A DNA stretch of 64,000 nt from Aneurinibacillus sp. (GTDB lineage: Bacteria; Bacillota; UBA5301; DYFA01). The notes beneath the pieces are model-generated. The model saw only the letters and a program-made list of their open reading frames with translations, searched no databases and was not told where the DNA came from. Positions 6,459 through 28,027 of the stretch are shown here, piece after piece (positions within the stretch are counted from its first letter, which is position 1; each line of letters begins with the position of its first letter). The stretch lies in the NCBI GenBank assembly GCA_020725425.1, contig DYFA01000008.1, positions 27,993-91,992 on the forward strand, written 5' to 3'. The position numbers and the translations under genes were made by a program.

Positions 6459-6461
6459 GCT

Positions 6462-9724: not shown

Positions 9725-10933
9725 TCAAACGCTGCGGTGACGCACCTCCTCCCAAGCGGTAACGATGCCCTCCGCTATCCGGTCGGTGGCGCCCGGACCG
9801 CCCATCCGTTCCCGTCCCGCCGCGGCCCGGCAGGCGTATTCCGCGGGGTCGTTCAGGATGCGCCAGGCCGTTCCCGCCACTCGGCTGAAGTCGCGTTCTA
9901 CGAGTGCCACCGCCTCGCCTAACAGCTTCTTCTGGGCGGCAGCAAAGCGGGGAGTGAACTGTGCCCCCCGCCCGGGGAACGCCACCACCGGGCGGCCCAG
10001 CCCCGCCGCCTGCTCGTTGGCGGTTCCAGCGAGGCCCACCACCAAGTCGCTCGCCAGGACCACGTCACCGAACCGCCCGAGGACTAGGGTCAGGACGGGG
10101 CGAGGGCTGGAGGGCTGCGGCGCGTGGCCGTCCCGGCCGGGAAGGGGAGCCAGGTGGCTGGCCGCATTGAGGAGGACTGCTTCGCCGCCGGCAGTACAGA
10201 TGGCCTCAGCAGCCCGGTGGGGGTCCAGCGCCGGCGCCAGCGCCACGGGGAAGGCCATCGGCTGGGAGACCAACCCCACCAGGCGGGCGGCCACGGCGGT
10301 CAGGTCCTCCAGGTTGAGATAAGCTTCCTGGCGGCTGCCGGGGAGCAAGGCCACTACAAAAGCGGCCGGGCCCAGCAGGGGGCGGAGGTTGGCCCCGGAG
10401 ACGTCCAGGCAGTCCATCATGGCGTTGCCGACGTATTCGGCGGGCACCCCCTCGGAGCTTAGGTGGGTAGCGGTCAGGGCGTCACGGGGAAAGACCTTCA
10501 GGCACTCCCGCATCAGCGCCACTTCCACTGCGAAGTGCGGAGCGATGTAGTCGGACTTGGCGGTCGGCAGGAAGACGGTGGGGCGGCGCGCCTGCCGGCG
10601 GGCCAGGTAGAGCACGAGTATGTCCCCCACCGCCACCACCAGGTCCACTTCGCGGCCCAGGCGGCGCACCTCGGCTGCCTGACCCAGAAGGAGCGGAAGC
10701 AGCCCCGCCCGCAGGTCGGCGAGCAGGTTTGCCAGGGAGTTGCGGGTGAAGCCGCCGCTTGGCATCGCCCGGCGGGGACCGACCAGCGGGATGCCCGCCT
10801 TGGAGTACGGCTTCCCCTCGCCCACCACAGCCAGCGCTTTTACCTCAACCTCCGGCGCCGCCCGGCGGAGTTTGGCAGCCAGCGTGGCGCCAATCAAATC
10901 CTCGCCGTGGCCGTTGCTCAGAAAGAGAATCAC
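9725..10933 (-). CDS. Lipid-A-disaccharide synthase-related protein (LpxB-like GT19 paralogue)
   Basis: VILFLSNGHGEDLIGATLAAKLRR... resembles the LpxB N-terminus (AGEASGD). ...ALLPGSRQEAY... matches LPGSR of LpxB. The start was refined to the GTG at 10931-10933 (GGGGGAG 8 nt upstream), because the ORF-track start overlaps the upstream nucleotidyltransferase. Confidence 0.65.
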   Translation of the reverse strand: MILFLSNGHGEDLIGATLAAKLRRAAPEVEVKALAVVGEGKPYSKAGIPLVGPRRAMPSGGFTRNSLANLLADLRAGLLPLLLGQAAEVRRLGREVDLVVAVGDILVLYLARRQARRPTVFLPTAKSDYIAPHFAVEVALMRECLKVFPRDALTATHLSSEGVPAEYVGNAMMDCLDVSGANLRPLLGPAAFVVALLPGSRQEAYLNLEDLTAVAARLVGLVSQPMAFPVALAPALDPHRAAEAICTAGGEAVLLNAASHLAPLPGRDGHAPQPSSPRPVLTLVLGRFGDVVLASDLVVGLAGTANEQAAGLGRPVVAFPGRGAQFTPRFAAAQKKLLGEAVALVERDFSRVAGTAWRILNDPAEYACRAAAGRERMGGPGATDRIAEGIVTAWEEVRHRSV

Positions 10934-10961
10934 CGGACCCGCTCCCCCAAGGGCTCTCCTC

Positions 10962-12062
10962 TCATACCCGGGCGACCACTTCCCCGGGGCGCAGGATGGA
11001 CCCGGCGGCCACCTCCGCCGCGGCCTCGACGACGCAGGTGTCCGAGAGGACGCTCCCCTCGCCCACCGCCGCGCCGGGTTCGATCCGGCAGCCTTGGCCG
11101 AGCACGCACTGGGACACCCGGCTCCCCGCTTCCAGCACCGCCCCGGCCCACACGACACTCGTCTCCACCACGGCACCTTCCCCCACTACCACGCCCGGGC
11201 CGAGCACCACGTCGCCGAGGAGCTTCGCCCGGGGAGCGACCCGGGCGCCGTCACCCACCACCACCCGACCCTGCACCAGCGCCTGAGGGGAGACCTCCGC
11301 CCCGCGCCCGAGCACCAGCGGCCGGTCCTCCCCGGGCAGGACAACCCCCGGCGTGTAGAGGCGGACCGCCCCCTGCAGGATATCCTGGTGGGCCAAGCGG
11401 TACTGTTGCAGGGTGCCCACGTCGCACCAGTAGCCGTGCATGCGGTAGCCGTAGAACGGCCGCCCTTCCGCCACGAGGCGTGGGAAGAGCTGCTTGCCGA
11501 AGTCGTAGAACTCCCCGGCCGGGATCAGGTCGAGAACCCCGCGCTCGAAGAGGTAGATGCCGGTGTTGGCCAGGAGCGACAGGGCCTCATGGGGCTCCGG
11601 CTTCTCCTGGAACCCGGTGATGCGGCCGTCCGGAGCAGTCACCACCACGCCGAAGTGGCGCGGATCGGACACCGAGCGGAGGGCGATCGTCGCCAGCGCC
11701 CCCCGTTGCCGGTGGAAGGCCAGCATGGCGCTAAGATCGATGTCGGTCAGGGCGTCGCCGGCGATGACGAGAAAGGTGTCGCTGAGGAAATCGGCTACTT
11801 TCTTGACCCCGCCGGCCGTTCCCAGGAGCTCCTTCTCCCGGGAGTAGACCAGGTTCATCCCGAACCGGCGGCCGTCTCCGAAGTGCTCCACGATGCTCTC
11901 CGGCCGGTACCAGAGATTGGCCACCACCTCGCGCACGCCGTGGTACCCCAGCAGGGCCAGAATGTGCTCCATCGCCGGGCGGTTCACGATCGGCACCATC
12001 GGCTTGGGCAGGTTGGCGGTCAGGGGATCGAGGCGGGAGCCGACGCCAGCCGCCAGGATCAT
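10962..12062 (-). CDS. Sugar-1-phosphate nucleotidyltransferase with C-terminal left-handed β-helix (GlmU/GMP-like)
   Basis: MILAAGVGSRLDPLTANLPKPMVPIVNRPAMEHIL (NTP_transferase G-x-G-x-R-L) plus C-terminal hexapeptide repeats. The start is set at the internal ATG at 12062; the ORF-track start at 12140 remains possible. Confidence 0.8.
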   Translation of the reverse strand: MILAAGVGSRLDPLTANLPKPMVPIVNRPAMEHILALLGYHGVREVVANLWYRPESIVEHFGDGRRFGMNLVYSREKELLGTAGGVKKVADFLSDTFLVIAGDALTDIDLSAMLAFHRQRGALATIALRSVSDPRHFGVVVTAPDGRITGFQEKPEPHEALSLLANTGIYLFERGVLDLIPAGEFYDFGKQLFPRLVAEGRPFYGYRMHGYWCDVGTLQQYRLAHQDILQGAVRLYTPGVVLPGEDRPLVLGRGAEVSPQALVQGRVVVGDGARVAPRAKLLGDVVLGPGVVVGEGAVVETSVVWAGAVLEAGSRVSQCVLGQGCRIEPGAAVGEGSVLSDTCVVEAAAEVAAGSILRPGEVVARV

Positions 12063-12152: not shown

Positions 12153-13439
12153 CTAACGGGCCGCGGGTTCGCCAGTGTCGAAGTGGCGGGCGATCTCCTT
12201 CGCCACCAGGGCGGCCAGGCGGCGGGCGGCGCCCGGTTCGCCCATCGTGCGGCGGAGGGTCTCCGCCATCACCATCCGCCGGCGGGAGTCAGCCAGCAAC
12301 CCCGCCGCTTCTTCAGCCATGGCCCCGGGACTGACTTCGCCCCGCAGCTCCGGCACGACGTAGGCTTGGGCCAGCCGGTTGGGCCAGGCGGCGTAGGGCA
12401 TGCGGGCCACCACCCGGGGGAGGATCCGGCGCTTCAGCGCCTTGCCGAGGCGCGGCAAGTTGCCGAGGAGGCCGGCCAGCCCTTCCAGCGGAATGCGTTC
12501 GGGATGGGTGAGCGGCAGGGCGACGACCATCGGTACCCCGAGGTAGCCCAGTTCCGCGGTGTTCGTCCCCGGAATGGTGAGCGCCAGATCCGCCGCGGCC
12601 ATGAGGTCGAAGCGAGCTCCCCGCCGGACGGGGATCTGCGCTCCACGCTCAGTGGCGATGAGCCCGGCCTTCGTCCCGTCCCCTCCGGCTTCGGGGAGGA
12701 ACCGGGCAGAGACTCCGACTTCCGCCGCCAGCGGCCCCCGCAGCGCTCGCTCGATCTGCCCCTCCTCAGTGAAGGGGGAGAGGCTCAGGGCGAAGGCCGT
12801 CTCCGGCCGGCGCTCGCGGAGCAGCTCGGCCGTCCGGGCGAACAACGGGGTCATAAACTCGACCTCCGCCGGGCGGCTGCCGGGAAGGAGCAGGACGAGG
12901 TCGCGGCCGGCCACTCCCAGTTCCTCCCGCACCGCGGCTGGCTTCCGCTGCGGCCGGACCGCGTCCAGCATGAGGTTCCCGACGACGACCACTTTCTCCT
13001 CCGGGACCCCTTTGGCGAGGAGCTTCTCCCGGATGACCCCGTAAGGCACCGCAAACCGAGCGAAAGCGTCGGTCCAGTTCACGAAGCCTTCGGTGTAGGC
13101 GAGGGCTGGATAGCCTAACCGCTTCCGCAGGAGTACGGCGTTCGTCAGCTCTCCGCCCAGGAAGAGCACGGCGCCCCGGCGCCCGGGGTTGAAGCCCGGA
13201 GGCCGGAGGCCGAGCACGGCATAGCGCAGGAACTCCGTTGGGCCGAAGGCGGCGTCCACCCCCGGCAGGGCGGCCACCACCTGGCGTTCGCACCCGCTGG
13301 CAAAGGTGCACGGTGGCACGAAGACCGTGACCCGGGCGCCGGGCAGGGCCTCCTTCAACGCCGGGGCCGCCGGGGCGACCCACCCGGCCACCTCGCCGGG
13401 ACTGTTGGCGGTTAGAACCAGGTCACACGTCTCCGCCAC
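12153..13439 (-). CDS. Second LpxB-like (GT19-related) glycosyltransferase paralogue
   Basis: MAETCDLVLTANSPGEVAGWV..., ...LLLPGSRPAEVEFMTPLF... (LpxB LPGSR motif), 428 aa. It overlaps the lpxB stop. Confidence 0.65.
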   Translation of the reverse strand: MAETCDLVLTANSPGEVAGWVAPAAPALKEALPGARVTVFVPPCTFASGCERQVVAALPGVDAAFGPTEFLRYAVLGLRPPGFNPGRRGAVLFLGGELTNAVLLRKRLGYPALAYTEGFVNWTDAFARFAVPYGVIREKLLAKGVPEEKVVVVGNLMLDAVRPQRKPAAVREELGVAGRDLVLLLPGSRPAEVEFMTPLFARTAELLRERRPETAFALSLSPFTEEGQIERALRGPLAAEVGVSARFLPEAGGDGTKAGLIATERGAQIPVRRGARFDLMAAADLALTIPGTNTAELGYLGVPMVVALPLTHPERIPLEGLAGLLGNLPRLGKALKRRILPRVVARMPYAAWPNRLAQAYVVPELRGEVSPGAMAEEAAGLLADSRRRMVMAETLRRTMGEPGAARRLAALVAKEIARHFDTGEPAAR

Positions 13440-14580
13440 GATTCTTCCCCCGGCCTTCCTCTGCCGCCTCCAGAACGACTGCCGCCGCCCGCCCGGCCGC
13501 CCCCGGTTCCCCCAGCTTCGCCACCACTGCCTGAAGACGCTGCCGGGTCCTCTCCCGGCGGTCCGGGTCGCGCAAATAACCTTCGACCTCCTCGGCCAAA
13601 CGCTCGGCCGTCAGGTCTTCCTGCACCAGCTCCGGCACGACCTCCTCGCCGGCCAGGATGTTGGGGAGGGCGTAGTGGCGCACCTTCACCAGGCGGCGGG
13701 CGAGCCAGGCGGTGAAGGCGCCGACGCGATAGACCATCACCATGGGAGTGCCGAAGAGCGCCGCTTCCAGAGTCGCCGTCCCCGAGGCCACCATCAACAC
13801 GTCAGCCGCCTGCATGACGTCGTGCGCCGCCGGGGAGATGTGCACTGGCAGGCCGGAAGCGGCGGCCAGTCCGGCCACCCGTTCCCGGTCGATCGTCGGC
13901 GCGAGGCCCAAGGCCCATCGCAACCCGTCCAGCCGCCCGGCCAGTCTCTCTCCGGCGGCCAGCATCACCGGCAGGAGCTGCTCCACCTCCTGCCGCCGGC
14001 TCCCCGGGAGGAGGCCGACCAGGTACTCCCCCGGCCTCACCCCGAAGGCGGAGCGGGTCTTCTCCCGGTTGACCGGGGGGCGGATGAGATCCAGAAGGGG
14101 GTGGCCGACGAAGGTCACCCGCGCCCCGGCTTTCCGGTACACCTCCGCCTCAAAGGGGAAGACGGAGGCCACCCTGGTGCAACTCTTCGCCACCTTCGCG
14201 GCGCGCCCCTCTCCCCAGGCCCAGGCGGCCGGAGGGATGTAGTACACTGCAGGGATCCCGAGGCGGGCGGCGTACGCCGCCACCCCGAGATTGAACCCGC
14301 CGAAGTCGATCAACACCACCGCGTCGGGGCGCTCCCGGCGCAGGGCCCGCTTCACCTCGCCCTGCCACCGCCGGAAGAGCGGAAGGCGCCGGAGGGCCTC
14401 CCCAAAACCGATGAGGGACACCCGCGTGGGGTCGAAGAGCAGCCGCACCCCCGCCTCGGCCATCCGCTGGCCTCCGATGCCGAAGAGTTCCAGGCCGGGC
14501 CGGCGGCGGCGGAGCTCCCGGGCCAGCGTCGATCCGTGAAGATCGCCCGAGGCCTCTCCGGCCAGGAGCATGATCTTCAT
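13423..14580 (-). CDS. lpxB: Lipid-A-disaccharide synthase
   Basis: MKIMLLAGEASGDLHGSTLARELRRRRPGLELFGIGGQRMAEAG... LLPGSRRQEV... is the canonical LpxB. Confidence 0.85.
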   Translation of the reverse strand: MKIMLLAGEASGDLHGSTLARELRRRRPGLELFGIGGQRMAEAGVRLLFDPTRVSLIGFGEALRRLPLFRRWQGEVKRALRRERPDAVVLIDFGGFNLGVAAYAARLGIPAVYYIPPAAWAWGEGRAAKVAKSCTRVASVFPFEAEVYRKAGARVTFVGHPLLDLIRPPVNREKTRSAFGVRPGEYLVGLLPGSRRQEVEQLLPVMLAAGERLAGRLDGLRWALGLAPTIDRERVAGLAAASGLPVHISPAAHDVMQAADVLMVASGTATLEAALFGTPMVMVYRVGAFTAWLARRLVKVRHYALPNILAGEEVVPELVQEDLTAERLAEEVEGYLRDPDRRERTRQRLQAVVAKLGEPGAAGRAAAVVLEAAEEGRGKNRGGDV

Positions 14581-16462: not shown

Positions 16463-16912
16463 CTACTTTTCTGCTTTTCTCGCCTCGCCAGCCATGCTGG
16501 CAAAGATGAGCTCCGCCTCGGCTACCATCGCTCCGTCCACCGTCGCCCGACCGGAGGCTTTGGCGACGCCGGCCTTGGCCCGTCCCAGCTCGACTTCGAT
16601 GATGAGCTGGTCGCCCGGGACCGCCGGCCGCCGGAACCGGGCGCGGTCGATCCCGGCGAGGACCGGTATTCGGCCCTCGAGCCCCGCGAGGGAGAGGTAG
16701 ACCGCCCCCGCCACTTGAGCCATGGCCTCCAGGATCAATACCCCCGGCATCAACGGGCGCCCGGGATAGTGGCCCAGGAACTGGGGCTCGTTCACCGTCA
16801 CGTTCTTTACACCCTTGCCCCGCACTCCCGGCTCCAGCTCGAGCAGCCGGTCCACCATCAGGAACGGGTAGCGGTGCGGCAAGATGGCCATGAGTTCACC
16901 GATGTCCACCAC
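16463..16912 (-). CDS. fabZ: 3-hydroxyacyl-ACP dehydratase
   Basis: VDIGELMAILPHRYPFLMVDRLLE aligns with B. subtilis FabZ [25 protein letters not shown]. GTG start with AGGGAGGTG upstream. Confidence 0.9.
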   Translation of the reverse strand: MVDIGELMAILPHRYPFLMVDRLLELEPGVRGKGVKNVTVNEPQFLGHYPGRPLMPGVLILEAMAQVAGAVYLSLAGLEGRIPVLAGIDRARFRRPAVPGDQLIIEVELGRAKAGVAKASGRATVDGAMVAEAELIFASMAGEARKAEK

Positions 16913-17768
16913 AAGACACCTCCCTGTCCAAGATCGCCGCCTGGAGGACGGCCTCCGCCAGGGCGGCGTTGAGGGCGTGTCCCGAGCGCAAGCCGAGCAC
17001 GTGAGCCCGTACGGGCGGGATCAGAGCCAGGTCGCCGAAGAGGTCCAAAAGCTTGTGCCGGGCCACCTCGTTCGGAAAACGGAGGGGGGCGGCATAACCC
17101 TCATCGCCGATGACCACCGCGCACTCCAGGCTCCCCCCGAGTGCCAGCCCCTCCGCCCACATTCGCTCGATGTCCGCCAGAAACCCGATGGTCCGAGCCG
17201 GCGCCAGCTCCGTCCGGAAGTCGTCCCGGCCCGGCACGAACTCGGCCAGTTGCACCCCGACTGCCGGGTGGGGGTGCGTGAAGACGTAGGTGAAACGGGG
17301 CGCCTCAGCCGGGATCGCCACGAGCGACGCCTCCCCCCGGGTGACTGCCACCGGGCGGTCCAGCGTCAGCACGGAGACTTCCCCCTCCTGCCGCACGATC
17401 CCCGCCTCAGCCAAAAGGCCGGCGAAGACGGCGGCGCTCCCGTCCCCCACCGGTACTTCCGGACCGTCCAGGCGCAGCAGGGCGTTGGTGACACCGACGC
17501 CGCGCACGGCGGCCAGCAGGTGTTCCACCGTCGCCACCTCCACCCCGGCGCTGTTCCGCAGGGTAGTGCAGAACGACGAGCGGCAGACCGCCCCGGCGTT
17601 GACCGGGATCTCCGGCTCGCCCGGCAGGTCGGTCCGGATGAACCGCAGGCCGGAGTCGGGCGGCGCCGGCTCGACCGTGAGCAGAACCGGTTTGCCGCTG
17701 TGCAGGCCGATTCCGGACAGCGCGGCCGGACGGGCCAGAGTGGCCTGGGAAAGGAGTGCTTCAGGCAC
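16896..17768 (-). CDS. lpxC: UDP-3-O-acyl-GlcNAc deacetylase
   Basis: QATLARPAALSGIGLHSGKPVLLTVEPAPPDSGLRFIRTD aligns with E. coli LpxC [40 protein letters not shown]. The start was refined to the GTG at 17768 (GGGGGAGG upstream); the ATG at 17840 has no RBS. Confidence 0.85.
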   Translation of the reverse strand: MPEALLSQATLARPAALSGIGLHSGKPVLLTVEPAPPDSGLRFIRTDLPGEPEIPVNAGAVCRSSFCTTLRNSAGVEVATVEHLLAAVRGVGVTNALLRLDGPEVPVGDGSAAVFAGLLAEAGIVRQEGEVSVLTLDRPVAVTRGEASLVAIPAEAPRFTYVFTHPHPAVGVQLAEFVPGRDDFRTELAPARTIGFLADIERMWAEGLALGGSLECAVVIGDEGYAAPLRFPNEVARHKLLDLFGDLALIPPVRAHVLGLRSGHALNAALAEAVLQAAILDREVSCGGHR

Positions 17769-18645
17769 GGACCGGTCGACCTCCCCCTGACTTCTGCGCC
17801 ATCGGCGGCCGTGGCGCCGGGCGCGGCACGGTTCCTGCATTCGCTCCGGCCGCCCGAATTCCTTTCCCTTTTCTTCCTCCGCCCTCTGCGGGCAAGCCCG
17901 GCAGACTCTCGAGGAGCCTCCGGTACCGCTCGCCCAAGAGCGACGTGGGAGCAGTGAAAACTTTCGCCGGAGACCCGTCCTCGACGATCTGCCCGCTGTC
18001 CATGAGGATGACCCGGTCGGCCGCCCGCAAGGCGAACGACAGCTCGTGCGTCACCACAACCATCGTCCGCTCGCCGTCCCGGACCAGTTCCTCCATCACG
18101 TCGAGCACCTCCCTTACCAGGAGGGGGTCGAGGGCCGCCGTCGGCTCGTCCCAGAGCATGAGGGCCGGGGAGAGGGCCAGCGCGCGGGCGATCCCCACCC
18201 GCTGCTGTTCGCCCCCGGAAAGCTGGGACGGCCGGCGGTCCGCCTTGGCCGCCAAGCCCACCCGGTCCAACGCTGTTTCGGCCGCCTCCAGCGCCTCCTC
18301 CACCGGTCGCCCGGCGGCGATCAGCCCCAGAGCGATGTTCTGCCGGGCCGAAAGCCGCGCCACGAGGTTGGAGTGCTGAAAGACGAACCCGATGCGCCGG
18401 CGGGCCGCGGCCAGCTCGGGCGGGGTGAGGCTCAGAAGGTTGCGCCCCTCGAACCAGATCTCCCCCGCGTCCGGCTCAAGCAAGCGGTTGAGGCAGCGGA
18501 CGAGGGTGGACTTCCCGCAGCCGCTGGGCCCCATGACCACCAGCGTCTGGCCGGCCGGTACGACCAGATCCACCCCGTCGAGCGCCACGATCTCGCCGTA
18601 GCGCTTGCGCAGCCCCCGCACATCAAGGACGGGCTCCCTCTTCAC
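17761..18645 (-). CDS. FtsE/LolD/MacB-type ABC ATP-binding protein
   Basis: GPSGCGKSTL Walker A, GEIWFEGRNLLSL (compare FtsE GKIWFSGHDITRL), and signature QLSGGEQQRVGIARA identical to the FtsE/LolD-group signature. It has a G/P/A-rich ~50-aa tail. Confidence 0.85.
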   Translation of the reverse strand: MKREPVLDVRGLRKRYGEIVALDGVDLVVPAGQTLVVMGPSGCGKSTLVRCLNRLLEPDAGEIWFEGRNLLSLTPPELAAARRRIGFVFQHSNLVARLSARQNIALGLIAAGRPVEEALEAAETALDRVGLAAKADRRPSQLSGGEQQRVGIARALALSPALMLWDEPTAALDPLLVREVLDVMEELVRDGERTMVVVTHELSFALRAADRVILMDSGQIVEDGSPAKVFTAPTSLLGERYRRLLESLPGLPAEGGGRKGKGIRAAGANAGTVPRPAPRPPMAQKSGGGRPVRA

Positions 18646-18649
18646 CGTG

Positions 18650-21124
18650 TCACCTCTTCGCCCCCGCCTGCCCCCACGCAGGCTGCGGGAAAATCATCTC
18701 TCGCCGGTTCAGGAGGAAGAGCAGCCCAGGGCGTCCCTCGGGGATCACGATCTCCCGCAGCATCCGGGCGTAGCTCAGCCCCATCGCCTGGCCCGCCTCG
18801 AGTTCCCCCACATCGATCGGGGCCAGCCGCCCGGCGAGCGCCGCGGTGAGGAGGCCCAGGGCTGCCCCGAGCGCTGCCACCGCCGGCCAGCCGATAAAGG
18901 GCAGCCCGGCGCCGGAGAGGGCGAAGACCGCCGAGAGTAGGGTGGCTCCGATCCCGGCACCGTAAACCGCGGCTGCGCCGGCCGTCCACCAACGCGGCAG
19001 GCGGCGCGACTTCCATCCCGTGCGCAGGGCCGAGATGATCAGGGCGTGGTCCAGCATCAGGACGGCCGCCACCAGGGCCACCGCCATCAAGCCCGCCACG
19101 GTGGTGCGGACCTTCCCCAGCACCTGGAAGAGCAGGCCCCGCAGGTCGGGCTTGAGGGACCCGGCGGGCGAGACGGCGGTCGAAACCTTCTCCCCGGCGG
19201 CCGCCCGCACTTCAGCCGACACCTGTTTCGCCGGGAAGCCCGCCGGCACGAGGATCTGCAAGCGTTCGCCCGGGATGACCTCTCCGCCGATGTAGCGGTC
19301 GATCAGCCGTACCGACCGGCCGAGTTCCTCATCCTTCAGGTCAGGCAGCGAGTCGCGCACATAGCGCATCTGCCGGCCGACGGAGTCCACGTCGATCTGG
19401 GCGATCCCCTCCAGGCGGCGGGAGATCTCCTCCAGGTCGGCTTTGAGTTTCGGCACGTCGATCGCCTGCATCGCCGTCAGGGTGCTGCCGGTAGCCTTGC
19501 TCAAGTCGCCGAGGAAGTCTTTCACACCCCCGGCGTTCTGCGCCAGAAGGCCGAAGTTGCCCACCTGCAACGCCAGCGACTGAGCCTGGGCCCGCCATTT
19601 GAGCAGGAGTGCCGTCACCGGGTTGATCTTCCCGATTATCTGGGACAACAAGTCCGTCTGCGGCAGCCCCGGCCCGGCGGCCTCGGCGGCCAGGTCCATG
19701 GCGGCCTTCGCCTCCGCCACCCCGCTCATCTTCCCGAGGAGGTCGTCGATCCCGGCCACCGTCCGGTTCAGTACGAGTACGATCTCGTCCGTCCGGACCT
19801 TGCCCAGGCCGTCCAGCGGGCCCGAAAGACCCCGGTGCGCCGCCTCCAGGGTGGACTGCGCCTTGGCGAGCCGGTCCAGGGTCTCTTGGTAGGAGTCGAG
19901 GGTGAGCTGCACCCGGGCCGCCGTCCTATCCGCGTGCTTGGCCAGAAGCTGGAGTTGGTTCAGGAGCCTCAGGCTTTCGTCCACCGTCGCCATCAGGGCG
20001 TAGCGCTGGTTGTGGATGGTCGCTGTCCCCACCGGCGCCCCCACCTTGTCGCCGGGCTTGACCCGGAAGGCCCGCCCGGCCGGGAACACCCCCTCCGCCG
20101 AAGACTGCCCAGGTGGCGCCGTGTCGCCCTGTACCGCCACGCCATGGGCCAGGCGCCCTTCCACGCCGGTGATCATCACCCGGAGGCTCCCCGGCCCAAG
20201 CTTGCTGCCGGGCGGCGGTATCCGCTGGCCCACCACCACTTCGTCGCCGCGCTGCAGGTTGACCCCGGGATCCATTTTCACCACGATGTCCGAGGCGTAA
20301 CTCAACAGGAACCGCCGCATCTCGGTCAGCGACGCCAGGAAGGACTGGGAATCATCCGCCCGGCTGCTGCGGGTCACGTCCTGCGCCTTATTCCCGGCTT
20401 CTCCGCCGAACTTGCGGTTCAGCGCCTCCGCCACCTGTTCCCCCGCCTGGCGCAGGTCCGGCACCCTGTAACCCATGGGGAAGCGCACCTCGACCAGCCG
20501 GTACTGCCCGAGCAGCGCCTTCACACTCCGCTCGACCTCCTCCGGCTTGTGGTTCCGCTCCACCGCCACCACCAGATCCCGGCCGTCGGCGAAGGCGACG
20601 GCCACCCCGGGCAGCCGCTCGAACCGCTCGAGGAAGAACCGGACCGCTCCGGATGCCACGCCGTGGATGACGATACTCGGCTCGACCAGCGTGGTATGGC
20701 CCGAGTAACCCGGGATGCTGCTGAAGGCGGAGTCGATGTTCTCCATTACGCTCCGGGTGCGCAGGTCCGGTGGCAGGGCCAGGAAAAAGTTGGTCTGGCC
20801 GGCGACGGTCAGCCCCGGCTTGAGCCGGGCCCCCGGAAAAGCCTTCGGCAGGTAAGCCGCGAGCTGCCGCTCCGCCCGCGCCTTGGCGTCGGCCCGCACG
20901 TGCAGCATGAAGTCGTACTCGCCGACCCCACCGATCAGGCCGGAGACCGTCCGGCCGAAATAGGCGTTCACCGCCCAGGCGGCGGCCGCCGACAAGAAGG
21001 AGAGCAGGGCCACTGTGACCAGGAGCAGCCGCCCGAGGTCCCGCAGAAACCCGTCCTGCAACGGCGCCAAGCCTTCAGTCAGCCAGGTGCGCAAGGTCGT
21101 CCTCCTCCATTGCCTGCGCACCAT
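18650..21124 (-). CDS. FtsX/MacB-topology (type VII ABC) permease with a ~600-aa periplasmic coiled-coil domain
   Basis: 824 aa with TM1 near the N-terminus (LGRLLLVTVALLSFLSAAAAWAV), about 600 aa without TM segments but rich in heptad-like stretches, then three C-terminal TMs separated by a short cytoplasmic loop (RTGWKSRRLPRWW) and a short outer loop. It lies 4 nt upstream of the FtsE-like ATPase. Confidence 0.6.
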   Translation of the reverse strand: MVRRQWRRTTLRTWLTEGLAPLQDGFLRDLGRLLLVTVALLSFLSAAAAWAVNAYFGRTVSGLIGGVGEYDFMLHVRADAKARAERQLAAYLPKAFPGARLKPGLTVAGQTNFFLALPPDLRTRSVMENIDSAFSSIPGYSGHTTLVEPSIVIHGVASGAVRFFLERFERLPGVAVAFADGRDLVVAVERNHKPEEVERSVKALLGQYRLVEVRFPMGYRVPDLRQAGEQVAEALNRKFGGEAGNKAQDVTRSSRADDSQSFLASLTEMRRFLLSYASDIVVKMDPGVNLQRGDEVVVGQRIPPPGSKLGPGSLRVMITGVEGRLAHGVAVQGDTAPPGQSSAEGVFPAGRAFRVKPGDKVGAPVGTATIHNQRYALMATVDESLRLLNQLQLLAKHADRTAARVQLTLDSYQETLDRLAKAQSTLEAAHRGLSGPLDGLGKVRTDEIVLVLNRTVAGIDDLLGKMSGVAEAKAAMDLAAEAAGPGLPQTDLLSQIIGKINPVTALLLKWRAQAQSLALQVGNFGLLAQNAGGVKDFLGDLSKATGSTLTAMQAIDVPKLKADLEEISRRLEGIAQIDVDSVGRQMRYVRDSLPDLKDEELGRSVRLIDRYIGGEVIPGERLQILVPAGFPAKQVSAEVRAAAGEKVSTAVSPAGSLKPDLRGLLFQVLGKVRTTVAGLMAVALVAAVLMLDHALIISALRTGWKSRRLPRWWTAGAAAVYGAGIGATLLSAVFALSGAGLPFIGWPAVAALGAALGLLTAALAGRLAPIDVGELEAGQAMGLSYARMLREIVIPEGRPGLLFLLNRREMIFPQPAWGQAGAKR

Positions 21125-21194: not shown

Positions 21195-21821
21195 CTACAG
21201 GCGGAAGTTCGCCTCCACGGGACCCTCCACCTCCACCACGTTCTTGTCCAGGTCGATGCGGATCGTCTCGCCCCGGATGGTCTTGTCGTCCTCCTCCTGG
21301 ATCACGACCTCGCCGGTCAGGATCAAGAGGGACTCGCGGTCGCGGTACTCCACGGTTCTGGCCGTGGCCGTCCGCTGCTTCTCCCTGAGGCTGACGTTCC
21401 CGGTGGCGATGAGCGACCGGTTCTTGGCCTCGTATTCCAGCCGGTCGGCTGTGAGGACCAGCTTGTCGCCTTTCTCCGGATCCTTGTCCTTCTTGACCAG
21501 CGTGACGTCGGTGTCCAGGAGGTATTTCTCCTCGTCGAACCAGGCGGAGAACCTGTCGCCCCACAGAGTGAGATCCTCCTGGGCCAGCCGGGCCCCTCCG
21601 TTCAGGACGGCGAACTTCTTCTTGGTGTCATAGACGATCTCGCCCGCCCACAACCTGACCTCACCCTGGACCAGCTCGATTGTCCCCTTGATGGTCACCA
21701 GGTCTTTCTCCAGCTTGAAGGCGCGGTTCTCCTTGACGGAGATGCGCAACTCCGCCGCCAGCCCTACTCCCGTCAGGGCCAGGGCGATGGCCAGAGCCAG
21801 CACCGCCCTCTGCGTTCTCAC
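21195..21821 (-). CDS. Second LptA/OstA-N-domain periplasmic protein
   Basis: Signal peptide, then repeated β-strand motifs (TIKGTIELVQGEVRLWAGEIVYD..., LTGEVVIQEED...) typical of the OstA-N jellyroll. 208 aa. Confidence 0.65.
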   Translation of the reverse strand: MRTQRAVLALAIALALTGVGLAAELRISVKENRAFKLEKDLVTIKGTIELVQGEVRLWAGEIVYDTKKKFAVLNGGARLAQEDLTLWGDRFSAWFDEEKYLLDTDVTLVKKDKDPEKGDKLVLTADRLEYEAKNRSLIATGNVSLREKQRTATARTVEYRDRESLLILTGEVVIQEEDDKTIRGETIRIDLDKNVVEVEGPVEANFRL

Positions 21822-22582
21822 TCCCGCTCCCTCCCCTCTGCCGGCCTCTCTCCCCCGCCGCCGAGCCCCGGCGCCACGAACGGCTCGCTTCGGCCGGTGC
21901 GGATGCTCAACTCCGCTGTCCCCCGGATCTCCCAGCTCCCGTCAGCCAGCGAGTAAATGATCGCCTCGCCGGTCAGGCGTTCCCCGTTCTCCCCCACCAG
22001 CACCACTCCACCAGAGGCGGTCAACGACTCCGCCTCCACCTCCACTGCCAGCCGGTCCGCCCGGAACCAGGCCCCTTCGATCTTGGCCTCCACCGGCTGG
22101 GCGCTCGTCACCTGCCCGGTCAAAGTGTCCCACTGCAGTTCCCGGGCGCGCAGCAGGTCTCCGTTCTCCCGGGAGACGACGATGTTCCCATATAGGGAAA
22201 AACTGCCCCGTTCCGGGTAATACACGCCCCTGTCGGCCACGACGTAGAGGTACGGCCGGCCCTCCCGGTACACCGCCCCCCGCCGCACGAGGTAGAAGTC
22301 CACCTGTCGGCTGTCCCGGGAGGTCCTGACCGTCGCCACCTGGAGTTCCCACTCCTTCCGCCCTTGATTCCGCCCGACCAGGCGGATATCGCGGAAGTGG
22401 AAGCCTGGTTGCTCGTGCCCGGCGCCGGCCGGGCGGCTCTCGCCCACCGGAGCCTCCGGCGTCCGGCCGAGCAGCACCAGCGCCGCCACCGCCAGGAAGA
22501 CCGCGGCCCCCCCGAGCCAGGGGGAGGACAAGGCCTTCCGGAGCCGTCCGGCGCCGGCCGCTCTCTCCATCCCCGCAACCAT
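21818..22582 (-). CDS. Second LptC-like membrane-anchored protein
   Basis: Start refined to the ATG at 22580-22582 (MVAGMERAAG...). Single TM (WLGGAAVFLAVAALVLLG) plus a β-rich domain. TGATG stop/start overlap with lptD. Confidence 0.55.
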   Translation of the reverse strand: MVAGMERAAGAGRLRKALSSPWLGGAAVFLAVAALVLLGRTPEAPVGESRPAGAGHEQPGFHFRDIRLVGRNQGRKEWELQVATVRTSRDSRQVDFYLVRRGAVYREGRPYLYVVADRGVYYPERGSFSLYGNIVVSRENGDLLRARELQWDTLTGQVTSAQPVEAKIEGAWFRADRLAVEVEAESLTASGGVVLVGENGERLTGEAIIYSLADGSWEIRGTAELSIRTGRSEPFVAPGLGGGGERPAEGRERE

Positions 22583-24879
22583 CAGCGAGGCACCCCCGGC
22601 GTAGCGCTCTCCGGGCTCAAGAGGCCGCCCAGGGACTGCGTGTCGAACAGGAGCCTCTCCCCCGCGCCCAGCCGGAAGAGCTGGGACGGCAGGGCCTTGA
22701 TCCGCCACTCCAACCATACTTCTCTCCGCGGCTCGTCGTAGCTCAGGCGCAACTCACGGCAGTGGAGGTCCCGCACCAACGCCACCTCGCCGCGGAGCAA
22801 CCGGTTGGACCAGCCGTCGTAACTCAGGGTCACCTCGGCCCGCCACAAGTCACCCAGGGGTGTCGCCGCCTGGGCGTCAAGGCGTTCCACGCGGGAGGTG
22901 CCCAGGTTCACGGCCGCCCCCAGCTTGACGAATTTGGTCTCGCTCGCCTGATAGGAATAGATGCCGGAGAGGCGCCGCCAAGTGCCGGTATTCGGGTCGT
23001 AGCTCACCATACCGCTCGCCGACAGGCGGGGCCGGCTGATCGCCAGGCGTCCGACCAGGTCCTGGTATTGGCCGGTCAGGAGGTTGTAGCCCGTGCCGAA
23101 GTCGGCGGTAAGTCCCGCCGCCACGTAGTTCACGTTGCCGGTGACGCTCTGCGCCGGACTGATACCGGTAGAGGCGAAGGGGTTGACCCCCAGGCGGTCC
23201 TGCCAGTTGTAGCGGAGGGTGGTCGAGAGCCGGGGCAGGGGCCGGTAAGTCAGCCCCGCCCCGGTGGTCGCACCCAGGGTGTAGTCCCCGTTCTGGTAGT
23301 AGGTGGCGGTGCTGGAGCCGTTGAGAGTGGCCGTGAGCCGGGAGGCCAGAGGGTAGGACAAGCCGGTCAGCCGGCCGGTGAGGCTTCCCATCGAGAGAGC
23401 GCGGCCGTCGGGGTAATAGATTGAGGACTCCTCGTAGCGCGAGAGAGTGGCCGTGAAAAACAGCGGCAGCGGCTTGCCCCGGTGGGTGAGCGTCCGGGTC
23501 TCGAGCGCCAGTTCCGGAAAGCGGGTGTAGCGGTTCCAGGGCGGCGGCGTCTCCCCTTCCACCACCGGCGGGGGGGTGAACTGCTGCTGGGCGGAGAGGC
23601 GGACAGTGAAGTCCGGAAAGGCGCGGGCAATCTGGGTCTGATAGCCAAGGTTGTCGTAGGGCGTCTTGTCGATCTGGTGGAACCGGGTGGCGCTGGCGGC
23701 GAACCGCCAGTCCCAGTCATTGGGCAGCCGTTGGGCCGTGTTGAAGCTCAGGCGGATGTTCCGCAGGTCGAGCTGGGAGGTGCCCGCCCCGCCGTCCGGG
23801 GGGAGAGTCTCAGTCACCGTCAGCCGGTAACTGGCGCTCAGGTCGGTCAGACCGGCGGGGGACTGCTGGGTCAGTTGCAGGTACGTGCCGGCTGCCTCTT
23901 GCTTCTGGAGACTTGAGAGGTACTTCTCCTCGTGGCTTCCGCGCAGAGTCCCCTTCCAGGCCGGGCCGAACTGCTGCCGGTGGTCCACCCCCCAGAATAC
24001 CTCCTCGTCGTTCCGGTCCCGGTACCCCTTGAGGTAGAGATACCACCACCCCGCTGCGTCCCAGGGCCTGTCTCCGGCGAGGTAGTTGTGCTTGAGCCCG
24101 AGGCCGAGGCCCTTCTTCTGGTACCAGTCCAGGAAGTACGCCCCGTAGGCCGCCGGGTTGCGGTAGTAGTTGTAGGTGGTCTTGACGAACCAGCCGTCGG
24201 TCTGCGAGTAACCGAGGCGCGGCAGCTCGAACTGGTTCTCCTTCTTGAGCGGGACGATCAGGTAGGGCAGGGTAAAGAGCCGGGTCCGCCCCTCGAAATA
24301 GGAGACCTGGCGGGCCTCCAGGCGGTCGTCCAGGTACACGGTGATCTCCCTGGCCTCCAGATGGTAGTGGGGTTGCGCCAGGTTGCAGGTGGTGAGGTTG
24401 GAATCGACCAGCCGCAGCATGGACTTGCTGCTCTCCATGAAACTCCCCACGACCAGCAGGTCATCCTTGAGGTCCTTCCCCTGGTAGGTGGTGGTGACGT
24501 CGAGAAAGGTCCCCGCCTCCTGCTTCAGGTCGTAGACGACCGACCTGGCCTCCAGCCGGTCGCTGCCCTTGCGGTAGCGCACATGTCCCTCCGCCCGGAC
24601 CACGTCGTATTCCAGATCCACCCGCAGGGTGTCCGCCTCCAGGGTGAGGTCACGGTAGGTCAGCCGGACATTCCCCTCAGCCACGAGGAGCTGGGCGTCG
24701 GCTTCGAAGCGCAACCCCTTCTCCGCCACCAGGTGAACGGCGTCCGGATCGGGCGCGGCCCGGGCGGTGAGGCGGCTGCCGAGCACGAGGGCGGTCACCA
24801 GCACGAGATAACCGAGGGTGGTGCGGTGCCTGCCTCCCATCCCGCTCGACCTGCTCCGGGTCACTGCAGCCATCGTCAC
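22582..24879 (-). CDS. lptD: LPS-assembly outer-membrane protein
   Basis: 765 aa with signal peptide. N-terminal OstA-like region (LVAEGNVRLTYRDLTLEADTLRVDLEYDVVRAEGHV), a large β-barrel region rich in Y/W/G, and an aromatic-rich C-terminus. Confidence 0.8.
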   Translation of the reverse strand: MTMAAVTRSRSSGMGGRHRTTLGYLVLVTALVLGSRLTARAAPDPDAVHLVAEKGLRFEADAQLLVAEGNVRLTYRDLTLEADTLRVDLEYDVVRAEGHVRYRKGSDRLEARSVVYDLKQEAGTFLDVTTTYQGKDLKDDLLVVGSFMESSKSMLRLVDSNLTTCNLAQPHYHLEAREITVYLDDRLEARQVSYFEGRTRLFTLPYLIVPLKKENQFELPRLGYSQTDGWFVKTTYNYYRNPAAYGAYFLDWYQKKGLGLGLKHNYLAGDRPWDAAGWWYLYLKGYRDRNDEEVFWGVDHRQQFGPAWKGTLRGSHEEKYLSSLQKQEAAGTYLQLTQQSPAGLTDLSASYRLTVTETLPPDGGAGTSQLDLRNIRLSFNTAQRLPNDWDWRFAASATRFHQIDKTPYDNLGYQTQIARAFPDFTVRLSAQQQFTPPPVVEGETPPPWNRYTRFPELALETRTLTHRGKPLPLFFTATLSRYEESSIYYPDGRALSMGSLTGRLTGLSYPLASRLTATLNGSSTATYYQNGDYTLGATTGAGLTYRPLPRLSTTLRYNWQDRLGVNPFASTGISPAQSVTGNVNYVAAGLTADFGTGYNLLTGQYQDLVGRLAISRPRLSASGMVSYDPNTGTWRRLSGIYSYQASETKFVKLGAAVNLGTSRVERLDAQAATPLGDLWRAEVTLSYDGWSNRLLRGEVALVRDLHCRELRLSYDEPRREVWLEWRIKALPSQLFRLGAGERLLFDTQSLGGLLSPESATPGVPR

Positions 24880-24909
24880 GTTCCGTTCCTGTCCGGTCGC
24901 CGGCGCCCC

Positions 24910-26037
24910 TCAGACCTGCTCCAGCCGGGTGACGAAGAAGAGCCCGAGGAGGGCGAAGGTCAGGCTGGGCAGCCAGGCGGCAGCGACTGGTGTCAGAAGG
25001 CCGTTAACCCCCAGAGACCGGCAGAGCGGTGTCAGGACGTAGTAGGTAAGCACCAGGGCCAGGGTCCCGCCGACTCCCGCGACATGTGCCGCGCGCGGCC
25101 GCCGCAACACCCAGAGCGCCAGCGGCAGGCCGAGCAAGGCGAAGAAGAGGCTGGCGAAGGGCAGGGCGAGCTTCAGGTGGTAGTCCACCAGGAACGGCCG
25201 GACATTCACGCCGCTCCGACCGAAGAGTGTGATGTTGGCCCGAAGTTCAGCCCGGCTCATCTCCTGCGTGGTCTTCTGCTCACCGAAGAACCGCTCCACC
25301 CCCTCATCCACCCGCAGGTCGAGGCTGGAGAAGCGGGCCTCCCTGGTCACGAAGCCGTCCCGGTCCAGCTCCCGGCTGATCCCGTTCTCCAGGTGCCAGA
25401 CACCTTCGGCGTGCCGGGCAAACCGGGCGGTGATCAGTTCCGGGTAAGGATTGACTCCTCTCTTGAACACCATCACGTCTTCCATGACCAGGTTGGCCCG
25501 ATCGAAGCGGCGGATGTAGAAGACGGTGTCGTCCTGGCCGCGGAAGAAGACGTTCTCGCGGATTTCCGGGGAGGAATCCTGGAAGACGAGGCGCCGGATG
25601 ATGTTCTCGGCCGCGTGGTTGGTCCGGGGGACCACTGTCTCATTCACGAAGTAGCTGCCCGCCGAGAGGAAAAGCGTCACCGCCAGGAGCGGAGCCATGA
25701 CCCGTCCCAGGCTGAGGCCGCTTCCGACCATGATTACCAGTTCCGAGTCGCGGGAGAGCCGGTGGAGGGCGAGCAGAGCGCCCGCCAGGACGGCCACCGG
25801 GACCACCTGCACCACCAGGCCGGGCAGCCGGTAACCGAGCAGGCGCAGGACTGTGCCGGCGGCGACTCGCTTCACGATCAGCCAGTCCGCGAGGGTGAAA
25901 AGCAGGTCGGAAAGGGCCAGAACGGTGACGGCTAGCAGGGCAAGGGCGAAGGAACTGAGAAACTCACGCAGGAGATATCGATCCAGCAGGAGGACCGAGA
26001 GCGTCTTAGGCGCGGCGGACTTCTCCCGCTTCACCAC
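24910..26037 (-). CDS. lptG: LPS export ABC permease, LptF/LptG family (partner of 4591..5742)
   Basis: LLDRYLLREFLSSFALALLAVTVLALS... shows the YjgP/YjgQ topology. Confidence 0.85.
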   Translation of the reverse strand: MVKREKSAAPKTLSVLLLDRYLLREFLSSFALALLAVTVLALSDLLFTLADWLIVKRVAAGTVLRLLGYRLPGLVVQVVPVAVLAGALLALHRLSRDSELVIMVGSGLSLGRVMAPLLAVTLFLSAGSYFVNETVVPRTNHAAENIIRRLVFQDSSPEIRENVFFRGQDDTVFYIRRFDRANLVMEDVMVFKRGVNPYPELITARFARHAEGVWHLENGISRELDRDGFVTREARFSSLDLRVDEGVERFFGEQKTTQEMSRAELRANITLFGRSGVNVRPFLVDYHLKLALPFASLFFALLGLPLALWVLRRPRAAHVAGVGGTLALVLTYYVLTPLCRSLGVNGLLTPVAAAWLPSLTFALLGLFFVTRLEQV

Positions 26038-26867
26038 TGAACAGTCACGCCCAAGGCGCCGCCCGTCCGGGCGCCTGCACCGTTCGCGGTCAGATCGACC
26101 CGGTACTGTCCGAGCTCAGCGGTGACCCCGGCCGACCAGCCGGTCTCAGCGGCCGCCGTGACCGCGGCGTGATAGGACAGCCTCCCCCGGGTCAGGGTCG
26201 CCTCCGCCACCCAGCTCGACCCTTCCAGGGTGGCAGCGGCCACATCGCGCCCCTCCAGGGTCAGGCGGAGAGCGGGACTCACCTGGCGGCCGAGGGTGAG
26301 CTGGACGGTGGCTGGGATGACCGTAGATGAGCCTCCGTCGGACTTGAGGGTGGTATCGAAGGCGTCGCACACCGCTACCCCCGCCCAGGTCCGCTCCTCC
26401 GGCTGGTAGACCACCCCGAAGTCCAGGCCCAGGCCGCGCTCGGCCGGAGTCGGTCCCACCCCGTCCACCGTCAGTTGGTACTGCACCAGCCGGACCGTGG
26501 CACCGGCAGCCAGCCCCGGCCGCCACCTGCGGCCCCAGGTGTAGCCGAACGACTTCGTCTCTTCCACCCCGCCGCTGAACAAAAGCCGCGAGTCGGCCAC
26601 CACGACGGCCGCCGCGCCCGCCCCGTTGTCCGGAACGGCGTAACCGGCCACATAATTGAGTTCCAGGGGGTTCGGATCAAGAAAGGTGACGGACAGGTCG
26701 ACTCGCCCGCCGAGTCCGGGGTCGAGGAAGGCCACCATCGCCGGGTTGAGTCTGCGGGCCGCCGTCCATTCCGGGCCGCTCGCCGCAGCCGGAAGGGGAG
26801 CACTTCCCGCCCCCCAGACCAGCAGCACACCGCCCAGGAAAGCGACCGCCAGCCACCGCCCGCGCAT
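26031..26867 (-). CDS. Putative outer-membrane β-barrel protein (signal peptide, C-terminal ...GALGVTVQW)
   Basis: Start refined to the ATG at 26867 (MRGRWLAVAFLGGVLLVWGAGSA), with AGGGGGT 7 nt upstream. Alternating hydrophobic pattern and terminal Trp. 278 aa. The ORF-track N-terminus overlaps lpxD and was rejected. Confidence 0.5.
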   Translation of the reverse strand: MRGRWLAVAFLGGVLLVWGAGSAPLPAAASGPEWTAARRLNPAMVAFLDPGLGGRVDLSVTFLDPNPLELNYVAGYAVPDNGAGAAAVVVADSRLLFSGGVEETKSFGYTWGRRWRPGLAAGATVRLVQYQLTVDGVGPTPAERGLGLDFGVVYQPEERTWAGVAVCDAFDTTLKSDGGSSTVIPATVQLTLGRQVSPALRLTLEGRDVAAATLEGSSWVAEATLTRGRLSYHAAVTAAAETGWSAGVTAELGQYRVDLTANGAGARTGGALGVTVQW

Positions 26868-26923
26868 GATACTACCCCCTGCAACGACGTTGTCCACCGC
26901 GTTGCTTTTCGGCAGGGAGCGGG

Positions 26924-28027
26924 CTATTTCCTCCCTTGGGGGTTTTTCCCGGCCTGGAGCTGCCGGACGAGCTCCTCGAGCTGTGCGAGGCGCCGGCGCA
27001 ACTCCCGCACTTCCTTCAGGGTCTCGGGCAGACGGCGGGCAGCCGCCCGGGTGCGCAGCTCCTCGCTGTGCGGGCGGGCCGGGACCCCGGAGACGACCGA
27101 ACCCGGCGGGACGTCCGCCGCCACGACCGAGCAAGCCATGACCACGCTGCCGGCGCCAACGGTGAAGTGGCCGCCGATCCCCGACTTGCCCGCCATCGTG
27201 CACCGGTCCTCCAACCGCGAGGAGCCGGCCAGCGCCACCTGGGCCACGAGGAGGCAGTCCTCGCCGATTTGGGCGTTGTGTCCGACCTGCACCAGATTGT
27301 CGATCTTGGTCCCCCGGCCGATGCGGGTCTCGCCGCACGTCGCCCGGTCGACGGTGACGTTGGCCCCGATCTCGACGTCGTCCTCGACCACCACCGTGCC
27401 GATATGGGGCACCTTGCGGTGGCGGCCGCCGGTCGTCACGAAGCCGAAGCCGTCGCTGCCCAGCACCGCCCCGGGGTGGATCAGCACGTTCCGGCCGATC
27501 CGCACCCGCTCCCGCACCACGACGTTGGCATGGAGCACCGAGCCCTCTCCGATGACGCTGTCGGGGCCGACGTACACTCCCGGGTACAGGACCACCCGGT
27601 CGCCCAGGCGCACTCCCGCCTCGACCACCGCCCCCGCCCCGATCGAGACCTCGCGGCCCAGCGCCGCGCTGGGGTGAACCACGGCCTGCGGGTGGACACC
27701 GGGCGCCGGACGGTAGTCCGGGGCGAAGACTTCAAGGAGCGTCGCAAAGGCGAGACGGGGGTTGTCGACGAAAATGACCGCCCGGCCGGGTCCTCCTGCT
27801 TCCGACACCTGGTCCCGCACGGCGGCCGCGAGGATGAGCACCCCGGCCGGGCTGGCCACCGCCTCCGCTGAACGCCCCGGGTCGGCGAACGTCACGTCCG
27901 CCGGCCCCGCCTCATCCAGCCCGGCGATGCCCGTCACCGCCCTCACCGGGTCTCCCTGGAGTTCGCCGCCGACCAGGCACGCCAGTTCCTGGGCGGTCCA
28001 CACCTTCTCTTCGGCCACTGCCCTCAC
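26924..28027 (-). CDS. lpxD: UDP-3-O-acylglucosamine N-acyltransferase
   Basis: Long run of hexapeptide repeats ([45 protein letters not shown]...) and an LpxD-type N-terminus. Confidence 0.9.

Follow-up and report, generated by a model that had tools for sequence, protein, structure and literature searches.

An ABC ATPase and its membrane subunit in the lipopolysaccharide gene cluster of diderm Firmicutes: a possible mechanotransducer derived from a type I importer

The gene pair and the affinities of its products

The window analysed here is a stretch of 64,000 nucleotides, with a G+C content of approximately 68%, from contig DYFA01000008.1 of Aneurinibacillus sp. (GCA_020725425.1), and belongs to a group of high-GC metagenome-assembled genomes (MAGs). 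Two adjacent genes on its minus strand encode a membrane subunit with a very large periplasmic domain and an ATP-binding cassette (ABC) ATPase. An original prediction made from the letters of the sequence had proposed a pair of genes, permease first and ATPase second, inside a cluster of lipopolysaccharide (LPS), Lpt and Bam genes. Both points were confirmed: the two genes are 4 nucleotides apart, an LptA-like gene (21195-21821) lies directly upstream and lpxC lies downstream.

Open reading frame (ORF) calling and translation extend the membrane subunit mechanically over 18650-21124, from an ATG at 21124, which gives the 824 amino acids originally stated. The true start is most likely the TTG at 21094, 7 bases ahead of which is found the Shine-Dalgarno sequence GGAGGAGG; the likely gene (18650-21094) would then specify 814 amino acids. 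A 100% identical database protein, also of 814 amino acids (P0001), is recorded as a hypothetical protein of a Bacillota MAG. Ten homologues (817-858 amino acids, 42-73% identity) can be aligned with the product from one end to the other, and because of this alignment the suggestion that two genes had been joined, or split by an unseen frameshift, was rejected. The ATPase gene (17761-18645; PF00005, E = 8e-37) specifies 294 amino acids including a low-complexity C-terminal tail, and its GTG start is located 4 nucleotides past the stop of the membrane subunit (TGAcacgGTG, window 18646-18652). The probable GTG start (17768) of lpxC (16896-17768; PF03331, E = 2.6e-84), in turn, overlaps the ATPase stop (GTGCCTGA, window 17761-17768). 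Since these junctions overlap or are only 4 nucleotides apart, the membrane subunit, the ATPase and lpxC look translationally coupled as one unit, and on sequence grounds both members of the pair are judged to be real and intact.

The membrane subunit consists of one transmembrane (TM) helix, a large periplasmic domain, three further TM helices and a C-terminal loop. Its termini are both assigned to the cytoplasm by hydropathy, the positive-inside rule and the helices of the AlphaFold model; positively charged residues abound between TM2 and TM3, which places the C-terminus on that side. TM1 (LLLVTVALLSFLSAAAAWAVNAYF, 20957-21028, minus strand, as are all features of the pair) is an N-in signal-anchor helix according to the AlphaFold helices and hydropathy, and is separated by an extracytoplasmic region of about 609 residues from TM2-TM4 (18824-19144), which were placed from the translation, from matches to Pfam BPD_transp_1 in 21 of 32 members, and from profile alignments with PotC and MetI. 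This is the order of elements which had been likened to FtsX, MacB and LolC; the topology stood, while homology to those proteins did not, as neither the FtsX nor the MacB_PCD model matches. The full-length AlphaFold monomer (mean predicted local distance difference test, pLDDT, 73) shows a long TM1, an alpha/beta region at residues 70-370, a helical region at 372-611, a beta-alpha-beta-beta unit at 620-657, and a long TM2 followed by TM3 and TM4. Its C-terminal loop is of low confidence.

In the N-terminal part of the periplasmic domain (20006-20926) the model predicts two ferredoxin-like (porter/ACT-like) beta-alpha-beta modules, a helical hairpin and a six-stranded beta-barrel. It is followed by a helical insertion of about 240 residues (19289-20008), predicted to form an antiparallel four-helix bundle whose longest helix has about 60 residues, and by the membrane-proximal beta-alpha-beta-beta unit (19151-19264), modelled just before TM2 with strands at 620-626, 647-652 and 655-657 and a helix at 631-642. 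The predicted size of some 600 residues was therefore correct, whereas the heptad-rich coiled coil that was to fill it fits only the 240-residue insertion, modelled as an antiparallel bundle; the rest is made up of alpha/beta and beta domains. Structure searches with the whole model matched four-helix bundles only, and one with the beta-barrel gave nothing informative. The ferredoxin-like modules resemble the MacB periplasmic domain and the porter subdomains of RND proteins about as well as they resemble ACT domains, so that they are porter-like only generically. The helical insertion is the most length-variable part of the family and is largely missing in members of about 600-700 amino acids. 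Asp682 in TM2 (LDH motif, codon 19049-19051) is invariant in 40 full-length members and 32 diverse C-terminal regions, the residue after it being usually His or Gln. This membrane-embedded Asp is a candidate functional residue.

The class of the membrane subunit was assessed with family models, profiles and motifs. The protein of the window matches no Pfam family, and neither FtsX (PF02687) nor MacB_PCD (PF12704) was matched, even at E <= 1, by this protein, by the 32 C-terminal regions or by the 40 full-length members. Its only NCBIfam signals are weak matches to HisM and ArtQ at residues 760-796. This stretch (EAGQAMG-LSYARMLRE-I-V-IP) fits the EAA-X3-G-X9-I-X-LP motif of type I importers and forms the putative coupling loop EAGQAMGLSYARMLREIVIPEGRPG (18725-18799), after which only 24 residues remain. 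The motif, in the window EAGQAMG-X9-I-V-IP, is kept throughout the family, and the loop aligns with the EAA loops of MetI, the ArtQ-type permease (4yms_D), PotB and PotC. The likeness of ELEAGQAMGLSYARM to such a loop had been regarded as superficial, with a true amino-acid-type permease named as what would overturn the type VII assignment; the loop is, by motif and alignment, the genuine EAA loop of a type I permease.

The helices ahead of the loop point the same way. A profile of close homologues ranked MetI, PotC and the ArtQ-type permease first among PDB chains (E about 0.1), and with a profile of the 32 C-terminal regions all eight matches were type I permeases (4yms_D, E = 0.014; MetI, 0.03; PotC, 0.04; PotB, 0.4), with no type VII chain among the PDB profile matches. 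The MetI and PotC alignments reach through the TM helices that precede the EAA loop. When the 32 regions were scanned singly at E <= 1, 21 matched BPD_transp_1 (PF00528; best E = 1.8e-5), any other family was matched by two at most and FtsX by none. The membrane subunit of the window has no PF00528 match itself, and the matches in the family all fall below the gathering score, indicating homology to a fragment rather than to the full domain. We conclude from these alignments that TM2-TM4 correspond by homology, as judged from profile and motif, to helices one to three of the type I importer core.

A type I core has at least 5 TM helices and, as in MetI, two of these come after the EAA loop. 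Here the tail following the RPG of the EAA motif measures 10-39 residues in 110 of the 117 motif-bearing members, has no hydrophobic span, reads PGLLxLLNRR... and then ends; two long-tailed exceptions are the fused form P0124 and the fragment P0145. As the protein ends so soon after the loop, these two helices are missing.

The ATPase leads to the same class. Its best NCBIfam matches are GlnQ, TcyN, EhuA, ProV and PhnC, all below their equivalog cut-offs; GlnQ (219 bits), TcyN (210) and EhuA (205) score above FtsE (177) and LolD (161). Thus, QLSGGEQQRVGIARA and the GEIWFEG motif, on which an FtsE/LolD affinity had been based, are indeed present but are not diagnostic of that group. Among PDB chains its closest relatives are DppD, ArtP-type ATPases and MetN. 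NCBIfam scores were also compared for three additional partner ATPases, those of Sporomusa ovata and of two divergent MAG lineages (loci L084 and L085). GlnQ, TcyN, EhuA, ProV and PhnC lead here as well, and above a 1e-52 cut-off all models matched are those of type I importer nucleotide-binding domains (NBDs), the only exception being one DevA-type exporter model among the 15 of Sporomusa. To judge from these scores the ATPase is an NBD of the type I, polar amino acid importer kind. A separate gene of the window (5739-6458) encodes a bona fide LptB (TIGR04406, 361 bits; cut-off 240), so the ATPase of the pair is not LptB. Neither the LptB nor the LptF_LptG model matches the pair, nor does it have the MCE (MlaD) beta-barrel domain with MlaE-type permease. 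Its membership of the type VII Lol/MacB/FtsEX class had to be abandoned in view of the missing FtsX and MacB_PCD matches, the type I permease matches and the type I NBD.

With type I importers such as Art(QN)2 (4yms), HisQMP2, GlnPQ and MetNI the pair shares the EAA coupling-loop sequence, a weak but consistent profile similarity over the three TM helices ahead of it, a GlnQ/HisP/ArtP/MetN-like NBD, and adjacent genes for membrane subunit and NBD. Large extracytoplasmic domains N-terminal to the transmembrane domain (TMD) occur in GlnPQ-type systems. The pair differs from such importers in its extra N-terminal anchor helix, in its context of LPS biogenesis rather than nutrient uptake, in falling short of the equivalog cut-offs, and in lacking the two core helices after the EAA loop in all members checked, without which the usual translocation pathway cannot form.

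Gene neighbourhood and distribution

In minus-strand order the pair is preceded by lpxD, lptF/G (24910-26037), a gene for a 765 amino acid LptD-N-like protein, an LptC-like gene (21818-22717) and the LptA-like gene, and is followed by lpxC-fabZ-lpxA-lpxI-lpxB, two LpxB-related genes, lptC-lptA-lptB-lptF/G and a gene for a DUF3084 protein. The downstream, canonical lptC-lptA-lptB-lptF/G genes occupy 4591-7705 of the minus strand, with LptB at 5739-6458 and LptF/G at 4591-5742; the upstream LptC-like, LptA-like and LptF/G genes, identified by family matches, are likewise on that strand. The window hence holds two distinct Lpt gene sets (4591-7705 and 21195-26037), the second without an ATPase of its own. 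In L084 an LptF/G domain and the LptD_N-like protein form one product of 1042 amino acids, which may indicate that the "LptD-like" protein acts at the inner-membrane end of a bridge.

The family of the membrane subunit has neither a Pfam nor an NCBIfam model. An exhaustive HMMER search delimited it to 219 representative clusters, and a word-indexed protein search based on the diverse alignment brought up only the 12 close homologues already known. Six representatives of 930-996 amino acids (P0117, P0119, P0120, P0124, P0129 and P0141) end in ABC ATPase sequence and appear to be membrane subunits fused to their own ATPase. One of these, P0120, has a precomputed ABC_tran match and occupies the slot of the two-gene version in its LPS cluster (L081, 10001-12961), from which we conclude that membrane subunit and ATPase work together. 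The possibility of a degenerate amino acid importer, or pseudogene, was rejected because of the 219 conserved clusters, the invariant residues and the fused forms.

To find the gene in genomes, one genome per GTDB species was scanned with the single pattern REIVIPx[GA]RP, which makes the taxonomic range a lower bound; 115 loci were confirmed and 80 kept. All the named organisms are Negativicutes of the Sporomusaceae type (Sporomusa, Pelosinus, Anaerospora, Lucifera and Massilibacillus) and the others are Bacillota MAGs. Cluster look-ups add the Halanaerobiales Orenia metallireducens, Halanaerobaculum tunisiense and Selenihalanaerobacter shriftii. Four MAGs of PRJNA950955 (L001, L007, L021 and L003) are labelled Betaproteobacteria, Bacteroidota, Patescibacteria and Syntrophothermus; their contigs carry a Firmicute-type LPS cluster and the labels look unreliable.

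In tblastn searches with the window proteins, the ATPase adjoins the membrane subunit in 79 of the 80 loci, and the eightieth ends 64 nucleotides past the gene. The order membrane subunit-ATPase-lpxC-fabZ-lpxA is kept in 63. Of the other loci, three have too little flanking sequence, one has lptB beside the pair, and twelve hold a second paralogue from a Sporomusaceae assembly; for ten of these assemblies the main copy is also among the loci fetched. These second pairs, from Sporomusa and Pelosinus (L029, L038, L043, L045-L047, L050, L052, L057, L059, L062 and L066), are 63-83% identical among themselves. That of Sporomusa rhizae (L047) comes after TetR, MFP and AcrB genes; this linkage is absent from every other locus and was dismissed as incidental.

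LptC-like and LptA-like genes stand directly before the pair in L001-L005, L081, L084 and L085 as well, and LptC alone in L083. Even the short (614 amino acids), divergent (616 and 777) and fused (986) forms follow lptF/G, the LptD-like gene and lptC, with lptA also preceding three of the four, and lpxC or fabZ follows all of them except the 777 amino acid form. In L084 lpxB takes the place of lpxC behind the pair, which still stands after lptC-lptA. Setting the second paralogues aside, none of the loci from the single-pattern scan places a member in a non-LPS context, which agrees, within the loci sampled, with a restriction to the LPS/outer-membrane cluster of diderm Firmicutes. No binding-protein gene was noted among the called neighbours in loci with gene calls, and no substrate-binding protein fold in the part of the periplasmic domain searched, its N-terminal part.

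The gene cluster of the window resembles the envelope cluster reported for diderm Firmicutes (PMC5007114). That 2016 survey noted three conserved uncharacterised components (COG0816, DUF3084 and COG0750), and its text and supplement name LptB, MsbA and LolCDE as the only ABC components; the pair is not in its published marker list, in main text or supplement (PMC5007114). We found no description of the family in the literature and, as there is no family model either, the claim of an uncharacterised ABC system with a giant periplasmic domain stands. Negativicutes are without LolA/B and Halanaerobiales possess LolA (PMC5007114). The statement that Mla is missing from diderm Firmicutes is out of date: Negativicutes and a few Limnochordia have MlaEFD, while Halanaerobiales do not (PMC10665443).

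Possible function and alternative explanations

On balance, we favour the explanation that the pair is an ABC mechanotransducer, derived from a type I importer, which acts in LPS or outer-membrane assembly of LPS-bearing Firmicutes. The membrane subunit would be descended from the permease of a binding-protein-dependent importer of the polar amino acid or MetI-like type. Of the original core it would have retained helices one to three together with the EAA coupling helix, by which it would dock into the ATPase, and would have lost the two helices that usually follow the EAA loop. New additions would be the N-terminal anchor helix and, inserted ahead of the core, the extracytoplasmic domain of some 600 residues. 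The complex probably contains two membrane subunits and a dimer of the GlnQ-type ATPase, a homodimeric (TMD-NBD)2 stoichiometry that we infer. Since each subunit has only four TM helices and no binding-protein gene adjoins the pair in the loci with gene calls, a solute importer is unlikely. Most likely the terminal coupling helices are pulled when ATP drives the ATPase dimer to close, and TM1 and TM2, both long, would carry this motion into the porter-like modules, the beta-barrel and the four-helix bundle of the periplasmic domain. Mechanotransmission, the mechanism originally suggested, is still the most plausible one, and would be functionally convergent with that of MacB, LolCDE and FtsEX. 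The fixed position of the pair, its coupling to lpxC and its frequent place right after lptC-lptA suggest a periplasmic step in LPS or outer-membrane assembly, which is how we would link it to the LPS pathway.

Several points weigh against this explanation. The single matches to type I permeases are weak (all below the Pfam gathering score, PDB E-values of 0.01-0.4), and so the type I case rests on their consistency, not on any one match. The EAA region has a pLDDT below 50 in the monomer model, and docking to the NBD is consequently deduced from the EAA motif and from the fused forms. As for the synteny with lpxC, this is guilt by association, and the second Sporomusaceae paralogues lie outside LPS clusters. 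Lastly, with one scan pattern, absence from monoderm Firmicutes and Veillonellales is not established.

We hold a bolder version more tentatively, namely that the pair is a new, non-transporting ABC architecture which arose from a type I importer by loss of the back half of its permease, and that it belongs, as an integral part peculiar to this lineage, to the machinery for LPS transport or outer-membrane biogenesis of all diderm Firmicutes. If so, ABC mechanotransmission would have been invented a second time, independently of type VII, and the pair might drive or gate a second LptC-LptA-LptD-like bridge or replace a missing function of the Lol or Mla type. For ABC biology it would mean that importers' module of EAA coupling helix and NBD can be put to new use in a system that has no translocation pathway. 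The diderm Firmicutes (Negativicutes, Halanaerobiales and Limnochordia) are central to the debate on the origin and loss of the outer membrane, and their envelope machinery is only partly catalogued. The pair is among the most tightly linked genes of their LPS cluster, and is a genetically testable candidate for a part in lipoprotein or lipid traffic, in assembly of the Lpt bridge or in control of LpxC.

A more specific form of the mechanotransducer explanation, to which we give a rather low probability, is that the pair extracts a lipid or lipoprotein, taking over the function of Lol or Mla; possible cargoes are LPS or a precursor bound for the second LptC/LptA bridge, phospholipids and outer-membrane lipoproteins. 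The pair comes right after lptF/G, the LptD-like gene, lptC and lptA in the high-GC MAGs L001-L004 (and in L032 and L053 with one gene lacking each), its placement in L081-L085 is similar, and the invariant Asp of TM2 would suit such a role. Negativicutes, without LolA/B (PMC5007114), and Halanaerobiales, without Mla (PMC10665443), both have the pair. On the other hand, a complete LptB-LptF/G set and MsbA are already there, and Halanaerobiales own LolA as well as the pair. Like LptB2FGC, which handles its substrate on the periplasmic side, the pair is an ABC system of the same cluster beside lptC and lptA; it differs in having no LptF_LptG domain and no beta-jellyroll, and LptB and two LptF/G genes are encoded separately in the window.

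The lpxC junction could also indicate a sensor or regulator of lipid A synthesis, in which the periplasmic domains would sense the state of LPS or of the envelope and the ATPase cycle would tune the activity or stability of LpxC, by analogy with the YejM(PbgA)/LapB/FtsH control of Proteobacteria. The invariant, translationally coupled neighbour is what speaks for it. We consider it improbable, since no known sensor employs an ABC ATPase in this way, the four-helix-bundle likeness is generic, no evidence of interaction was found, and the pair of L084, which precedes lpxB, keeps its place after lptC-lptA without lpxC.

That the pair is after all a true type VII system, its EAA-like motif being convergent or coincidental, seems less probable still. 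Like MacB, LolCDE and FtsEX the membrane subunit spans the membrane four times, carries its large periplasmic domain between the first and second helix, and has porter-like beta-alpha-beta modules close to the membrane and a long, stalk-like TM1 and TM2; a force-transmitting, non-transport mechanism, likely in the pair, and a role in a diderm envelope would be shared as well, and the FtsE and LolD models do give the ATPase 177 and 161 bits. Against this are the lack of any FtsX or MacB_PCD match in the regions and members scanned, PDB profile matches consisting of type I permeases alone, a periplasmic likeness to MacB no better than that to ACT domains, and an NBD which scores 40-60 bits higher with type I importer NBDs and thus appears to come from a different clade. 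The coupling element also differs, being a helix between TM2 and TM3 in type VII systems. In the AlphaFold model the TM2-TM3 loop has about 11 residues (705-715, RTGWKSRRLPRWW), apparently not long enough to form a major coupling helix like that of MacB, and the coupling-type motif is C-terminal instead. Furthermore, the periplasmic domain is 2-5 times larger and has a predicted four-helix bundle and beta-barrel in place of the type VII Sabre or X-lobe.

Least probable of all is an FtsEX-like activator of cell-wall hydrolases with a built-in EnvC-like coiled coil, remodelling peptidoglycan for division or for trans-envelope bridges: a helical bundle on a four-TM ABC subunit is conceptually like FtsX-EnvC, but there is no homology to FtsX, no LytM, CHAP or amidase gene adjoins the pair in loci that have gene calls or were mapped by tblastn, members of about 600-700 amino acids can do without the helical insertion, and the gene context, that of lipid A synthesis rather than division, lends no support to the division variant put forward originally.

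Other features of the window

The distal part of the minus strand was assigned with Pfam and NCBIfam and contains flgF/G-flgA-flgH-flgI, a SpoIVB-like protease, tamB, a sigma factor and bamA. Three LpxB-related genes are consecutive: a canonical LpxB (9725-11176), a weaker LpxB-like gene (12153-13439, 428 amino acids) and a TIGR03492 "lipid-A-disaccharide synthase-related" gene (13423-14580). This three-gene arrangement is kept in the high-GC MAGs L001-L006. The DUF3084 protein is encoded at 3309-4562, and is also found at the ends of L081 and L084. Four ORFs of the cluster have no family match, at 26031-27338 (435 amino acids), 28024-29241 (405 amino acids), 29799-31097 (432 amino acids) and 32879-33577 (232 amino acids); that at 29799-31097 lies next to bamA in Negativicutes loci as well. 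Finally, sporulation-type genes for a SpoIVB-like S55 peptidase and SpoIID stand beside genes for L/P-ring flagellar and LPS proteins, with a multihaem cytochrome of the MtrC/c552 type further along (39288-41342, 48965-49960 and 53636-55012).

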